Source: Dehalococcoidia bacterium
GTDB taxonomy: Bacteria; Chloroflexota; Dehalococcoidia; Lucifugimonadales; UBA1127
Reading direction: 5' to 3'
DNA: 64,000 nt
Assembly: GCA_965261405.1 (NCBI GenBank)
Contig: CBDHDD010000002.1
Span: 1,075,880 to 1,139,879 of the forward strand
Numbering within the stretch: the first letter of the stretch is position 1; each line of letters starts with the position of its first letter. The position numbers and the translations under genes were made by a program. The notes beneath the pieces are model-generated. The model was not told where the DNA came from. It saw nothing but the letters and a program-made list of their open reading frames with translations, and made no database searches. Below, piece by piece: positions 6,750 to 57,760 of this stretch.

Positions 6750-6771
6750 TAATTTCCTAGATTGGCGGCCG

Positions 6772-7593
6772 CTACTTCCGGGTCGCGATCACCGTCAGCC
6801 AGTTGCGGGGGACGTTCTCCAAGCCCAACTCTTCAAAAGCCTGACGGGCGCCTGTCTGCAGGGCCTCTGAGCCGTACTCCAGCGGCACGCCAGGCATCGC
6901 GCCCTCAATGAACGCTTCGTACTGGCTGATGGCGAGGAAGCCGGCCAAGTCCATCGGAGCGGGGCAAAGATGGGTGCGGGCCACCGAGAAGCCGTTGCGC
7001 AACAACAGGGCCTCGTATTCGTCGGCGGTTAGCTGAAGACGGGCAGCCACCTTCTCGTGCTTGGGGAACATGTTGTGCTTGGACTTGAGTGCACGGAGGG
7101 ACTTCGACATCCATCGGCGGTAGAACTGTTCGGACTCCTGAGGGACACTGCCCTGGAAAAAGGTGGTATTGAAGGCAAAGGTGCCGCCGGGCCGGAGAGT
7201 GGCTGCAACCTCCGCAACCAGCGTTTGCTTGTCGGGCACCATATGGATGCCGTTGCAGAACACTACGCCGTCCACCCTGTAGTTGACGATGGTGGACAGG
7301 TGCTCGGCGCGGCTGTGGATGAATTCCAACGCCACGTCGCGTGCGGTGCCCAATTGTGCCATCGCCTCTTTAATGGCCGACGCAGACATGTCAATTGCGA
7401 TTACGACGCTGTCCCGCGCGCCCTTGATACGGTCGGCAATGAGCCGGGTCACGGCGCCCGTGCCGCAGGCTAGGTCAACGATCTTCTGCCCGGGGTGGAA
7501 GTCCACCATGTCCACCAGCTGGCGGTTGACCACCTGATAGAACCCCTGCGACGCAAAGGGGGTGTACGAAAACCGGGATTCTTCCATCTGCAC
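6772..7593 (-). CDS. class I SAM-dependent methyltransferase
   Basis: 273 aa. VDLACGTG (motif I) followed by an acidic loop IAIDMS. Methyltransf_11/25-like layout. Confidence 0.8.
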   Translation of the reverse strand: MQMEESRFSYTPFASQGFYQVVNRQLVDMVDFHPGQKIVDLACGTGAVTRLIADRIKGARDSVVIAIDMSASAIKEAMAQLGTARDVALEFIHSRAEHLSTIVNYRVDGVVFCNGIHMVPDKQTLVAEVAATLRPGGTFAFNTTFFQGSVPQESEQFYRRWMSKSLRALKSKHNMFPKHEKVAARLQLTADEYEALLLRNGFSVARTHLCPAPMDLAGFLAISQYEAFIEGAMPGVPLEYGSEALQTGARQAFEELGLENVPRNWLTVIATRK

Positions 7594-7726
7594 ACCTCAG
7601 ACTAACGCCATACTTGGACAACCCTAGTTGACAAGCGCCGCCAAAGCCATAAAAAGGGCTTTTCAACCGTTTCATATTGTACCGGCCTTGTCCAGTTATT
7701 GATAGGGGATGGCAGAATCCCGCGCG

Positions 7727-7755
7727 TTGACACTGACTGAGGCCCTTCCTACACT
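7727..7755 (+). promoter_or_regulatory. sigma70-like promoter candidate (TTGACA-N17-TACACT)
   Basis: TTGACA at 7727-7732, 17-nt spacer, TACACT at 7750-7755. About 80 nt upstream of the small membrane-protein ORF. Confidence 0.35.
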
Positions 7756-7836
7756 GGGTTTTTGCAGCCAGTCCACATGCAGTCTCTTCCATGCTCCTCC
7801 GCAAGAAGCTTGGCCGCGGAAGGACGGACTTTCGCC

Positions 7837-8043
7837 ATGTACGATCCGCGATACAGGTTCCACCGCGCCACACTCAGCTCCAGCAGCAGGATTGTCCTCG
7901 GGATCGTGGTGTTTGCCTTCGGCCTGTTTCTCATCTCGCCCGTAGCGGAGTGGCTGCTGAACCTCGTGGGTTGGATCGCCATGATTGGAGGGGCGGTCGT
8001 CTTCGCCGCTGGACTCTGGACCGCTCTTCGGAGCAGGGGGTAG
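7837..8043 (+). CDS. small predicted two-helix membrane protein
   Basis: 68 aa from MYDPRY. Two hydrophobic segments (IVLGIVVFAFGLFLI, WIAMIGGAVVFAAGLW). The next ORF starts 8 nt after its stop. Confidence 0.45.
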   Translation: MYDPRYRFHRATLSSSSRIVLGIVVFAFGLFLISPVAEWLLNLVGWIAMIGGAVVFAAGLWTALRSRG

Positions 8044-8050
8044 CAGAAAC

Positions 8051-8380
8051 ATGGCCAGCCCGAACCCATCCGGTACCCGCGCCGACACCCTCGCGCGCAT
8101 TGCCGTTAGGCTTGAGGGTCCTTCGCAGTACCGGGGAACGGAAATCATCGGCGACCTACGTGTCATCGCGGAGACGCTCTACTACCCCTTCAAGTTTGTC
8201 GCGTTTTGGGACGGGCAGACGGGCAACCACCTCTGCCCACAGACGCAGGCGGGCCGACCCTGCGCCCACACGCCGGACGACGCAGGCCGCGCCTCCTATG
8301 CCGTAGCGGTAGAGGACGAGATGGCCGGTGAGCTGGAGGTGCTCTTCCCGCACGCCGACCTTTCCATCTTTCTGGGTTAG
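8051..8380 (+). CDS. hypothetical protein
   Basis: 109 aa with coding-like composition, tightly following the previous ORF. No domain recognised. Confidence 0.4.
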   Translation: MASPNPSGTRADTLARIAVRLEGPSQYRGTEIIGDLRVIAETLYYPFKFVAFWDGQTGNHLCPQTQAGRPCAHTPDDAGRASYAVAVEDEMAGELEVLFPHADLSIFLG

Positions 8381-8445
8381 ACTGGTGTCACGCCGCCGTT
8401 CAACGGGGCCTGGGTACCCCTTCCCGCGCCCTACGCTATACCCTA

Positions 8446-55596: not shown

Positions 55597-55938
55597 CTTG
55601 TTCTGTGGCTGGTTTGGCACGTTGCAGAAACAAGTGGAACGGCGGAGGTTGTTTTCCGGCCAAGCCGTAGCCGGAGGGAGGTTGTTTCCAGTGATCGTTT
55701 TGTAGCTGGTTTGGCACATTGCAGATACAAGACGATTATTTTTCGCGCTGGGGGAAACAACCTCCGGGTCCGTCCCAGGGGTCATGGCGCCCTCGGCCGT
55801 CGATGCGGACCATGCGGGTGAGGGGAAAGGGGCGCGCGGCGTGGCGGCGATGCCCGGTTTCAGGTTCTTGATTGCGTGTTGCACGGTTGGAGAGTAGCGG
55901 GTTCGCCGGCTTTGGCACAAGGGGCTGGTGTCAGGGTG
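55597..55938 (+). repeat. long noncoding element family, copy C (with an extra head hairpin and duplicated left arm)
   Basis: Perfect 13-bp outer stem GGAGGTTGTTTCC (55677-55689) / GGAAACAACCTCC (55753-55765) enclosing hairpin TTGTAGCTG...CAGATACAA with a TGGCAC loop. Second left arm at 55644-55657. Extra hairpin at 55597-55634. Tail GTGTCAGGGTG at 55928-55938. Confidence 0.55.
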
Positions 55939-56024: not shown

Positions 56025-56054
56025 TTGACCGGTGGGCGGTGCGCTTCCTATAAT
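56025..56054 (+). promoter_or_regulatory. sigma70-like promoter candidate for tRNA-Gly (TTGACC-N18-TATAAT)
   Basis: TTGACC at 56025-56030 and TATAAT at 56049-56054, 14 nt upstream of the tRNA 5' end. Confidence 0.45.
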
Positions 56055-56068
56055 AATTGCCTGCGCAA

Positions 56069-56143
56069 GCGGAAGTAGTTCAGTGGTAGAACGCCTCCTT
56101 GCCAAGGAGGAGGTCGGGGGTTCGAATCCCCTCTTCCGCTCCA
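56069..56143 (+). tRNA. tRNA-Gly (anticodon GCC), CCA encoded
   Basis: Cloverleaf by hand: acceptor GCGGAAG/CTTCCGC, D arm GTTC-AGTGGTA-GAAC, anticodon arm CCTCC-TTGCCAA-GGAGG, T arm with TTCGAAT loop, then discriminator and CCA. Confidence 0.9.
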
Positions 56144-56301
56144 GTTTTCCCTCTACTAGACCCGCTCCAGCCGTTTCACGCGCCGTTTCAGCTCGCTCCT
56201 GGGCAGCATGACTCGACGGTTACACGTCTGGCAGACGATGCCGATGTCCATGCCCACGCGCACCACTTCCCACTTGTAGCCGCCACAGGGGTGCTTCTTC
56301 T
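56133..56301. repeat. direct repeat 1 (tRNA-Gly 3' end + spacer + 3' part of a DUF951 gene)
   Basis: Aligns with 56694-56864 over its full length, with scattered substitutions and a 1-2 nt indel. Confidence 0.85.
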
Positions 56302-56302
56302 T
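56156..56302 (-). pseudogene. 5'-truncated DUF951 gene fragment (48 codons + stop)
   Basis: Reads [48 protein letters not shown]-stop, preceded by an in-frame TAG with no start codon. One residue differs from the intact copy. Confidence 0.8.
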
Positions 56303-56395
56303 CTATTCACCTGCCATCAGCCGAGACATAATTGAGTCTCCGCTGATGTACCATGCCTGATGGCAACCGCCCAAAAGAAACAGGAGGCCCCTCTA

Positions 56396-56641
56396 ATGTC
56401 TGAGTCATATCAACAGTTACAGAAGCTATCCGACGACGCGATAATTGAAATCTTTGACAGGGGTGCAAAGACGACGGAATTCTTCCCAGATTACTATTTG
56501 GGCATTCTCAACAGGCGGCAACAGGATCGCCAGACAAAACAGATTGTACGGCTGACGTGGGTTATCACCATCCTAACGGCTATTGTCACTTTCGCAACGA
56601 TTGTAAACGTTGGGGTTTTCATCTACGAAGTCTCTAGGTAG
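56396..56641 (+). CDS. hypothetical small protein with a C-terminal transmembrane helix (cassette cargo)
   Basis: 81 aa from ATG 56396 behind AGGAGG; the ORF opens at 56360. Lower G+C. C-terminal LTWVITILTAIVTFATIVNVGVFIY. Confidence 0.45.
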   Translation: MSESYQQLQKLSDDAIIEIFDRGAKTTEFFPDYYLGILNRRQQDRQTKQIVRLTWVITILTAIVTFATIVNVGVFIYEVSR

Positions 56642-56693
56642 ATACAAGAGAGCCTCAAACCACCGCTTGGCATCAGCCTGGTCTTTACCAGTG

Positions 56694-56864
56694 CTTCCGC
56701 TCCAGTTCCCCCCTCTGCTAAACCCTCTCCAAGCGTTTTACGCGCCGCTCCAACTCGCTTCTGGGCAGCATGACCCTGCGGTTGCATGTCTGACAGACGA
56801 TGCCGATGTCCATGCCCACGCGCACCACTTCCCACTTGTAGCCGCCGCAGGGGTGCTTCTTCTT
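56694..56864. repeat. direct repeat 2 (relic tRNA-Gly 3' end + spacer + 3' part of the intact DUF951 gene)
   Basis: CTTCCGCTCCAGTT at 56694-56707 duplicates 56133-56146. The remainder lies inside the intact DUF951 gene. Confidence 0.85.
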
Positions 56865-56909
56865 TAGGGTGAGCAGGTCTCCCATGTGCAGGTCAAGGAT
56901 CGGCGGCAT
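56718..56909 (-). CDS. DUF951-family small protein
   Basis: 63 aa. [60 protein letters not shown]. Starts 11 nt after the pyrF stop. Confidence 0.75.
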   Translation of the reverse strand: MPPILDLHMGDLLTLKKKHPCGGYKWEVVRVGMDIGIVCQTCNRRVMLPRSELERRVKRLERV

Positions 56910-56920
56910 CGTCCCACCCT

Positions 56921-57760
56921 TTACGCGGTCCAACCCAGGCCGCGGTCGTCGAGGACGCGGTTGATGCTGTCGCGGAGATGCGAGGCGGCGTCGCGAGCGG
57001 CTTGCTGGTAGGTGGCGGGGTCGTCGCCTGCGTAGATGACGCCGCGGGAGGCGTTCACGATTGCGTTGCGGCCGTGCTCGTCGACACCCACGGCGACGGA
57101 GCGCTCCAGCGATCCCTCCTGCGTGCCGACACCGGGGATGAGGATGGGCATGTCGGGGCAGATGTCGCGGACGCGCTCGAGCTCGTCGGGGTAGGTGGCG
57201 CCGACGACGAGGCCGACGTTGCCGTTGTCGTTCCACTTGACGGCGGTCATCGCGACATGCTCGTACATGGGGCGGGTGTCGCCGCCGGTCATGGGGGAGA
57301 CGAGGAGGTCCTGGAACTCGCGGGCGCTGGGGTTGGAGGTGCGGCAGAGGACAAGAATGCCGCGGTCGGCGCGGGCGAGGAAGGGCGCGAGGGAGTCCCG
57401 GCCCATGTAGGGGTGGAAGGTTGCGGCGTCAAAGTCCCACACGTCGAACAACGCCTTTGCGTAGCCGGCGGAGGAGTTGTCGAGGTCACCGCGCTTGGCG
57501 TCGCTGATGACGGGAATCCAGTCGGGGATGGCGTCCAAGGTCGCCCGAAGGGCCTCGAGGCCGGGAATGCCGAACGCCTCGTAGAAGGCCATGTTGGGCT
57601 TGTAGGCGCAGACCAGGTCCGAGGTGGCCTCGATGATGGCGCGGTTGAACTCGGCGACGTCGGCGACGGGCATCCGCGCGGGGTCGGGGTCCAGCCCCAC
57701 GCAGAGCAGGCTGCGGTTGCGCTCGGCGGCGGCAAGGAGCTTGTCAGCGAAGGCGGGCAT
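56921..57760 (-). CDS. pyrF: orotidine 5'-phosphate decarboxylase (type 2)
   Basis: 279 aa. LCVGLDP, DAKRGD and long-form PyrF layout. Confidence 0.9.
   Translation of the reverse strand: MPAFADKLLAAAERNRSLLCVGLDPDPARMPVADVAEFNRAIIEATSDLVCAYKPNMAFYEAFGIPGLEALRATLDAIPDWIPVISDAKRGDLDNSSAGYAKALFDVWDFDAATFHPYMGRDSLAPFLARADRGILVLCRTSNPSAREFQDLLVSPMTGGDTRPMYEHVAMTAVKWNDNGNVGLVVGATYPDELERVRDICPDMPILIPGVGTQEGSLERSVAVGVDEHGRNAIVNASRGVIYAGDDPATYQQAARDAASHLRDSINRVLDDRGLGWTA

Follow-up and report, generated by a model that had tools for sequence, protein, structure and literature searches.

The window, the whole stretch of DNA that was analysed here (64 kb of a Dehalococcoidia bacterium genome), carries a small, low-G+C cassette between an intact tRNA-Gly(GCC) gene (56069–56143, plus strand; Rfam 75.5 bits) and an intact gene of the DUF951 family, beyond which lies pyrF. 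The cassette holds a single open reading frame (ORF), ORF81, for an 81-amino-acid (aa) protein. It is enclosed by direct repeats of ~170 bp (56133–56302 and 56694–56864) that are ~89% identical and align with one 1-nt indel, located in the spacer. Each repeat starts with CTTCCGCTCCA, that is, the 3′ strand of the acceptor stem, the discriminator base and CCA, and, past a 12–13-nt spacer, takes in the stop codon and the 48 terminal codons of DUF951, which is encoded on the opposite strand. The opening 14 nt (CTTCCGCTCCAGTT) are identical between the copies; the 11-mer CTTCCGCTCCA is found at 56133 and 56694, with no third occurrence in the window. Below, allele D is that of the proximal (dead) fragment and allele N that of the 3′ half of the intact gene. 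Related loci and other contigs are given by L numbers where they need to be told apart; the related loci were located through pyrF. A pyrF-based scan with one genome per species also places the window in a Dehalococcoidia metagenome-assembled genome. The features of the locus are as follows.

56025–56054, plus strand: promoter-like site of the tRNA gene, TTGACC-18-TATAAT, with 11 of 12 consensus matches
56069–56143, plus strand: tRNA-Gly(GCC), intact (Rfam match)
56133–56146, no strand: proximal 14-nt stretch CTTCCGCTCCAGTT (tRNA 3′ tip plus 3 nt), identical in both repeats
56147–56155, no strand: proximal spacer of the D type (full spacer GTTTTCCCTCTA), resembling the spacers of L004 and L006 (empty sites) and of L002
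56156–56302, minus strand: dead DUF951 3′ fragment, allele D (stop plus codons 63 to 16)
56232–56302, no strand: near-identical block, DUF951 codons 16–38, shared with 56794–56864; candidate crossover region
56303–56693, plus strand: low-G+C cargo segment, 391 nt
56312–56365, plus strand: nested inverted repeats, outer pair TGCCATCAG / CTGATGGCA, upstream of the ORF
56383–56388, plus strand: Shine–Dalgarno sequence AGGAGG, 7 nt before the ATG
56396–56641, plus strand: ORF81, an 81-aa predicted tail-anchored membrane protein with a C-terminal hydrophobic helix
56678–56691, plus strand: small hairpin CTGGT-CTTT-ACCAG with a 5-bp stem, 2 nt (TG) before the distal repeat
56694–56707, no strand: distal 14-nt stretch, a displaced or copied tRNA 3′ tip (from the repeat alignment)
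56708–56717, no strand: distal spacer of the N type (full spacer GTTCCCCCCTCTG), seen only beside the cassette
56718–56909, minus strand: intact DUF951, 63 aa, with allele N as its 3′ half (PF06107 match)
56921–57760, minus strand: pyrF (orotidine monophosphate decarboxylase), the conserved right-hand neighbour, which served to locate related loci

A preliminary description of this DNA had reported most of this layout, and the alignment bears out its direct repeats with the last 11 nt of tRNA-Gly and ~48 codons of DUF951. The lower-G+C stretch between them, put at ~390 bp, measures 391 nt and has a G+C content of 48%, as opposed to 64.5% for the window; G+C at third codon positions (GC3) is 0.57 in ORF81 and 0.87–0.92 in neighbouring genes. 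Also borne out were the 81-aa ORF with its strong Shine–Dalgarno sequence and C-terminal transmembrane helix, and the lack of an integrase, the cargo holding ORF81 only. The inverted repeats are present, with TGCCATCAG at 56312, rather than at 56311 as had been given, and its complement at 56357, as described; each is single in the window. An inner hairpin (56315–56348) is stronger than this outer pair, with a minimum free energy of −28 kcal/mol (z −2.8). The small hairpin at 56678–56691 did not reach significance against shuffled sequence.

Next, we compared the two DUF951 ends. The intact gene is a clear family member (PF06107, E 5e-25; 87.7 bits against a gathering cut-off of 25), and the metagenome contig L001 encodes the same DUF951 protein. 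The proximal copy consists of codons 16–63 and the stop, has no start codon and carries a TAG (56303–56305) at the position of codon 15, so that it is dead, as had been stated. Codon by codon, D and N show 13 synonymous differences and one replacement (E54K), a recount identical to the earlier one; by nucleotide, 15 of the 16 differences are synonymous (nonsynonymous to synonymous ratio pN/pS 0.02, with pS 0.46). In simulations, the chance that eight random substitutions create no stop and alter no more than one amino acid was P = 1e-4; 16 random substitutions did not give this result once in 20,000 trials. When L001 was used for polarization, the D lineage had 10 nucleotide changes in the variable half and only one replacement among them, and therefore evolved under purifying selection. 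The near absence of replacements would reflect that each copy was the end of a functional DUF951 gene, in separate lineages, before they were brought together, and the pattern supports the view that one DUF951 3′ end evolved in a working gene of another lineage. Duplication in place followed by decay is ruled out by this selection signature; a transposon-type target duplication is ruled out by the signature and by the absent element ends. A long target-site duplication was rejected on the ground that its copies would start identical and decay randomly. GC3 was tried as a marker of origin for the two ends and proved uninformative (0.76 versus 0.80). The N half (56718–56790) has synonymous codons absent from sequenced relatives (TGT39, GTA57, TTG60 and AGG62). 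The spacer of the intact gene (GTTCCCCCCTCTG) is unique, while most relatives and the proximal copy have the GTTTTCCC... type; L006 has the GTCTTCCC... type.

The repeats were then sought in public sequencing runs, which were examined as assembled contigs (Logan) that drop minor variants; S1, S2, S3, S4, S6 and S9 denote samples, four runs being from S1, and S2 belonging to another study. In all four S1 runs, the tRNA body and the proximal fragment are linked by an exact 133-nt contig (56123–56255), while another exact contig, of 509 nt (56255–56763), runs through the fragment, the whole cassette, the displaced tRNA tip and the distal copy. An exact 153-nt contig (56817–56969) in S1 carries on into the intact gene. 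In S2, the cassette was found at 98% identity with the same left junction as in the window. These data bear on the concern, raised in the preliminary description, that the duplication is an assembly artefact. Such an artefact would consist of two haplotypes stitched in tandem, or of a free 562-bp circle wrongly inserted into an empty-site chromosome. At least two strains do co-occur in the sample, and short reads cannot phase the near-identical 71-nt block, so an empty site plus a circle fits the k-mer graph. However, exact contigs at matching depth cover both cassette junctions and the tRNA-to-fragment link in the four runs, and we consider an artefact extremely improbable. The structure is treated as real because stitching cannot create 391 bp of unrelated low-G+C DNA with a conserved gene, and because the cassette recurs with the same left junction in S2.

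Further contigs revealed how the two alleles are distributed. In S1, a co-occurring strain has an empty site and an L001-like allele at 1.3–2.2 times the depth of the window strain, and its DUF951 allele is nearer N than D. A 133/134-nt contig joins the tRNA body to a D-type spacer and the D 3′ half, with one synonymous difference (codon 42, TGT to TGC). It has a depth of 16.3 in S3 and 4.2 in S6, both with a cassette depth of 0, and was also present in S2 and S4. The donor-like allele that the preliminary description had suggested looking for was thus found as D, at the tRNA in cassette-free populations (S3 and S6). This makes D a true allele that functions in a sister or resident lineage, and accounts for the synonymous bias of 15:1. 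S3 also yielded a 537-nt contig of which the aligned 377 nt are identical to the distinctive upstream region of the window. In none of the runs examined was the tRNA body seen joined to the N-type spacer GTTCCCCCCTCTG, or an N-type spacer and allele without the cassette. The right end of the cassette in S2 runs through the 14-nt core into TTCCCTCTACTA, a D-type spacer, so the unit exists in more than one flank combination, and in S2 it either has D on both sides or is a circle. A 542-bp deletion scar in a sibling strain ('joint 56152 to 56695') was considered and rejected; the single contig behind it fits two places, and the sibling has an empty site.

The junction between tRNA-Gly and DUF951 varies among relatives. 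The window is syntenic with L003, with ~90% nucleotide identity on the left and right flanks. The tRNA-Gly sequence is identical in the window, L003, L004 and L006, and the promoter motif is visible in these three relatives as well. In L004 and L006, only a 13-nt spacer separates the tRNA from the DUF951 stop; both are empty sites of the kind that the preliminary description had proposed to search for, as is the site of the co-occurring strain in S1. L003 (7068–8272) has a two-gene module of 1.25 kb between tRNA-Gly and DUF951, with no flanking repeat, encoding a 270-aa STAS + HATPase_c protein and a 129-aa protein without a family, with weak PADLOC matches only. The same module was read in L001 from the 20 nt visible there, in L005 with an internal deletion in the first gene, and in run X13 on a single 1522-nt contig. 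In L002 (7046–9340), a 46-nt 3′ fragment of tRNA-Gly that starts in the anticodon loop adjoins DUF951. Alongside lie a tyrosine integrase that is broken into two ORFs and is probably a pseudogene, an IS3-family element, and then MoxR-like and DUF58-like genes. An island of classical type ends here, at the same tRNA-Gly, and the 6 kb of sequence taken stops short of the complete tRNA. Together, the junction has at least four states in this genus-level group: empty, two-gene module, integrase island and the cassette of the window. The cassette shows no sequence similarity to the L002 island or to the L003 module, and we rejected the idea that it is a remnant of either.

Of 29 related loci in which DUF951 adjoins pyrF, only L018, a distant Dehalococcoidia metagenome-assembled genome (contig JBATUN010000020.1; 56% pyrF identity), proved to have a second, partial DUF951. 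Here the order is pyrF, intact DUF951 (6770–6961), a 1.3-kb insert with a class I S-adenosylmethionine (SAM)-methyltransferase gene (7203–7982), a DUF951 3′ copy (8278–8417) and lipA. The dead copy is 140 nt long and 76% identical, retains 35 codons in frame and the same stop, and reaches 17 nt beyond the stop. Compared with L020, its peptide has 6 mismatches in 32 residues, and the end of the intact gene 9. Neither a tRNA nor an integrase was found at the L018 locus. As the layout is repeated there without a tRNA, the element shared by both cases is the DUF951 end and not the tRNA. In IMG/VR, DUF951 had no relative, and no integrase-bearing element with a DUF951 end was found among viral contigs. 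Near-full-length DUF951 homologues do occur in GenBank phage records (for example OR846716.1, OR846609.1 and OR844992.1), on contigs that lack annotation and bear the names of Listeria, Enterococcus and Staphylococcus phages; these most likely represent host DNA in phage preparations.

These observations allow us to propose how the locus arose. Circular DNA that carries a fragment of its target, such as a suicide plasmid, integrates by a Campbell-type single crossover, and aberrant excision can capture host flank, as in lambda gal and bio phages. We suggest, with a probability of roughly 55%, that the cassette is a minimal non-autonomous islet that entered the tRNA-Gly–DUF951–pyrF locus by one Campbell-type crossover, the incoming unit supplying the 3′ end of the intact gene. 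The 391-bp integrative islet, with one gene for a small tail-anchored membrane protein, would have been part of a unit that carried its own copy of the junction segment, that is, tRNA 3′ tip, spacer and the last 48 DUF951 codons. One reciprocal recombination between this unit and the chromosome would double the 170-bp segment around the cargo and leave both DUF951 and the tRNA intact. The crossover itself would lie within the 71-nt near-identical block of DUF951, at the inner edge of the repeat (53 nt, one mismatch at 56285 and 17 nt). The unit would thereby have supplied the 3′ end (N), the N-type spacer and the 11-nt tRNA tip now on the intact gene, and the tRNA-proximal D fragment would be the displaced resident end. 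RecA acting on homology, or a recombinase supplied in trans, could have carried out the exchange. Where an element integrates into the 3′ end of a housekeeping gene, a surrogate end is known to restore the target while the old end is displaced (PMC5704250).

The single crossover is inferred from the layout, and we lean towards the 3′ end of the intact gene as the import, which is the reverse of the earlier proposal. The preliminary description had read the locus as an integration at the tRNA that carried DNA of another lineage. Integration as the source of the duplication and the foreign lineage of one end stand, whereas the dead fragment need not be what arrived, as it could be the displaced resident end. 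For the same reason tRNA targeting is uncertain, and L018 repeats the layout without a tRNA; the copied segment may just happen to have its far edge at the tRNA tip. A crossover in the DUF951 block is favoured by the presence of this 71-nt near-identical stretch, by allele D sitting at the tRNA in cassette-free samples and by the unseen N-type empty sites; it accounts for the flank homology of the unit without special explanation, and fits L018 too. We weigh it about twice as heavily as a crossover in the 14-nt tRNA tip. The unit may have moved as a 560-bp circle or may be the stump of a larger element; that the cassette boundaries of S1 and S2 are identical tells us no more than that inheritance is now of the small form.

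Several points weigh against this proposal. The D and N differences cluster outside the 71-nt block (15 in the 75 nt of codons 39–63 versus 1 in the 69 nt of codons 16–38), but the contrast is only weakly significant (P ~0.04–0.06; 3e-4 under uniform rates) because the half with codons 16–38 also evolves ~3 times more slowly among relatives. In the variable half, N differs from L001 at 5 positions and D at 10, which speaks against N as the foreign end. With a crossover in DUF951, the S2 junction requires that a conversion took place later, and is simpler if the D arm travels with the cassette, and the 14-nt match and the start of the repeat at the 3′ strand of the acceptor stem fit integration at the tRNA tip. 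The cassette encodes ORF81 alone and no recombinase domain, and a search of the 64-kb window for homology to the L002 integrase was empty. The repeats (170 bp at 89% identity) exceed the usual range of site-specific attachment (att) repeats, 2–60 bp (PMC4701971). Last, the L018 locus is a single, old and diverged parallel.

An alternative places the crossover in the tRNA. A 561-bp unit composed of the 14-nt tip, the D spacer, the D fragment and the cassette would have recombined in the 14-nt tRNA tip, leaving the intact gene native. It would have done so through a tip-specific integrase acting in trans or by homology-facilitated illegitimate recombination on the 14-nt microhomology, and the dead fragment would be a donor flank that an aberrant excision had previously captured in a host of the D type. 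The perfect 14-nt identity and the start of the repeat exactly at the acceptor-stem 3′ strand fit this scheme; the asymmetric 3′ end of tRNA genes is reportedly a recognized crossover sublocation for some integrase subfamilies, as Williams is said to have described in 2002. The S2 sequence (cassette, core and D-type spacer) is the predicted junction of such a unit, circular or in its home host, the N half is nearer L001 and the co-occurring S1 strain than the fragment is, and tRNA-Gly is used by the integrase island of L002. However, the crossover of that island lies in the anticodon loop (46-nt repeat) and not at the tip. Moreover, an N-type empty site (tRNA followed by GTTCCCCCCTCTG) was not seen in any run, whereas D-type sites are common and occur in S3, a sample in which the exact upstream sequence of the window is also present. 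Classical tRNA-integrating elements lack 157 nt of flank homology past the tRNA, L018 repeats the layout without one, and neither the cassette nor, as judged by homology to the integrase of L002, the window contains an integrase. With an earlier capture of the 157-nt flank and unsampled N-type empty sites both required, we regard this scheme as unlikely but credible. A further scheme starts from two identical copies, one of which was later overwritten by allelic recombination with an empty-site strain or by gene conversion, so that the synonymous-only divergence is secondary and uninformative on the arrival of the cassette. Strains with different DUF951 alleles do share samples, the right halves of the two copies are nearly identical, and S2 apparently has a D-type spacer distally too; from this last observation, conversion or flank exchange happened at least once under any model. 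Nevertheless, the first event must still duplicate 170 bp around foreign DNA, that is, by Campbell-type integration. Replacement of the distal copy from an empty-site donor needs a crossover in the 14-nt core, the right end of the cassette having no homology to the tRNA body. These extra steps explain nothing more, and overwriting is improbable as the origin of the pattern.

Other classes of mobile DNA were examined and rejected. An integron cassette would be expected neither from the only hairpin after ORF81, which has a 5-bp stem and is not significant, nor from inverted repeats that lie upstream of the ORF; tblastn of the L002 integrase against the window was empty, and no dedicated intI search was made. 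IS200/IS605-like elements, other insertion sequences and miniature inverted-repeat transposable elements do not fit a segment that occurs once in the window, has no terminal inverted repeats at 56303 and 56693 and is flanked by a diverged 170-bp repeat.

Because the integrase of the autonomous families is lacking, we describe the cassette as islet-like and either decayed or helper-dependent: by analogy it seems to work like a decayed or helper-dependent integrative islet, and is not a proven member of one family. Like tRNA and tmRNA islands, it has an intact tRNA at one end and a copy of the 3′ tip at the other, a foreign composition and empty sites in relatives, and the same tRNA is used by the integrase island of L002. 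Many ssrA islands likewise lack an integration module: in Dehalococcoides these islands have a 20-bp repeat, and 15 of 31 are without the module and were proposed to be cis-mobilizable (PMC3146451). In contrast to such islands, the cassette repeats 11–14 nt of the tRNA and then 157 nt more, through the spacer and 48 DUF951 codons, measures 391 bp rather than kilobases and has no integrase; its tRNA may be incidental. With integrative and mobilizable or conjugative elements that target the 3′ end of housekeeping protein genes (PMC5704250, PMC4701971) it shares a repeat that includes the end of the gene, an intact target (63-aa DUF951) and a displaced dead end on the far side; target and topology recur in one further locus, L018. 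The short identities in the repeat that may have served for a crossover are the block at its inner edge, which is slow-evolving among relatives (53 + 17 nt with 1 mismatch) and the 14 nt at the tRNA tip. It differs in that DUF951 is not a reported target, integrase and relaxase are absent, the repeat is longer and more diverged than the usual 2–60 bp, and just one small gene makes up the cargo. Cis-mobilizable elements (CIMEs) are decayed elements that keep attL and attR and have lost their integration and transfer genes (PMC5704250). The cassette resembles them in its att-like direct repeats, the absence of recombination and transfer genes and a site used by other elements, but has no adjacent helper in tandem and is far smaller than described CIMEs. 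In common with suicide plasmids and lambda gal and bio phages, a segment is duplicated around the insert, one copy ends at the edge of the carried fragment, and the fragment comes from another lineage; here, however, the event is natural, in an uncultured organism, and the carrier would be ~560 bp if nothing more moved. The cassette stands apart from known cases in its tiny size, the length and divergence of the repeats and a possible new target gene; it is a miniature of ordinary genomic islands that lacks an integrase, rather than a novel type of system.

An insertion of only 0.4 kb and one gene, in the streamlined genome of an uncultured Dehalococcoidia bacterium, still records a readable history of entry, and xenologous ends can be recognized where a dead gene fragment has diverged at synonymous sites only. 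Current concepts are unchanged; known island biology is extended to a very small scale and to a poorly studied class. If the L018 parallel generalizes, DUF951 joins the conserved genes that serve as integration targets. A bolder idea, which we consider distinctly unlikely, is that the DUF951 3′ end is the attachment site of unrecognized minimal, integrase-less single-gene cassettes in Dehalococcoidia, each with a surrogate copy of the gene end, that are moved between lineages by a recombinase acting in trans or by homology alone. The pyrF–DUF951 junction would then be a small cassette-exchange site, with the window (membrane-protein cargo) and L018 (methyltransferase cargo) as two instances.

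Finally, we examined the distribution of the cassette and its gene. The cassette was absent from all 80 related loci, and a word-index search of public runs found it only in S1, S2 and S4, with a trace in S9, and in no RNA run. Its DNA had no match among PLSDB plasmids. ORF81 was assigned no family by Pfam, NCBIfam, PHROGs or PADLOC; tblastn of phage and plasmid records gave no match, IMG/VR contained no relative, and metagenome contigs of the Joint Genome Institute (JGI) yielded one weak, seed-biased match (L082). A word-indexed protein search returned the query alone. An exhaustive phmmer search of 1.8 billion representatives showed a family, with 242 proteins at E ≤ 1e-3, nearly all of 70–90 aa and matched over their full length. 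The search for homologues that the preliminary description had called for thus showed that ORF81 is not an orphan and belongs to an unnamed family of ~80-aa proteins with 242 representatives. Its consensus reads ...ELxxLSDxELIxxYDxxAxxT...YLxELxRRxQxRQTxxMxRLTxxITxMTxVxTxATxVNV, and the named sources are Alphaproteobacteria, Omnitrophota and Planctomycetota. An AlphaFold2 model of ORF81 (predicted local distance difference test score, pLDDT, 79.8) has two short helices and a long helix of residues 31–80 that includes the membrane anchor; nothing was found for it with Foldseek against BFVD. The S2 variant carries F66I and one synonymous change only, and the next 52 nt carry five changes, a pattern consistent with ORF81 being a constrained gene. 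ORF81 has the same orientation as the tRNA with no terminator predicted between them, which makes expression by read-through from the tRNA promoter plausible.

Members of the family occur in varied surroundings: within a type I restriction–modification (R-M) operon beside a DUF433/DUF5615 pair, adjoining HsdR, YgjP and DUF4062 genes, adjoining an IS481 transposase, in a prophage between a ParB-methylase and a terminase, beside an nSTAND/AAA ATPase and an IS1-like gene, and in a block of small hypothetical genes. Relatives associated with type I R-M lie at L085:1–7306 and L094:4242–8196. The recurrence in prophages and near R-M and defence genes makes the family a reasonable candidate for a phage-related accessory function; from this context, our guess is that ORF81 has an accessory role at the membrane that is relevant to phages or defence, for instance in exclusion or as an abortive-infection effector. 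The closest homologue (51% identity; L083:3177–4350 and L084) is encoded in a low-G+C islet just downstream of a tRNA-Asn. This islet also holds an ORF of 102–123 aa, and a degenerate copy of the tRNA 3′ end (CTGCGG..CAAT) lies ~110 nt past the ORF81 homologue.

The other side of the tRNA is variable as well. In the window, the intergenic region between a 2-hydroxyacid dehydrogenase gene and the tRNA is ~490 nt long, compared with ~100–130 nt in L003, L004 and L006. At 55598–55770 it contains a 35-nt direct repeat in two copies (GTTYTGTRGCTGGTTTGGCACRTTGCAGAWACAAG) that lie 97 nt apart, and a 15-nt inverted pair (55643–55657 and 55752–55766); together these look like a small inserted repeat element, which is unique in the window. 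Upstream of tRNA-Gly in L005 (7930–8130), two intergenic copies of a ~32-nt motif (GGGATTCCTGGATAYCGGCATYCGCCGGTATG) are a further small repeat element at the same variable site.

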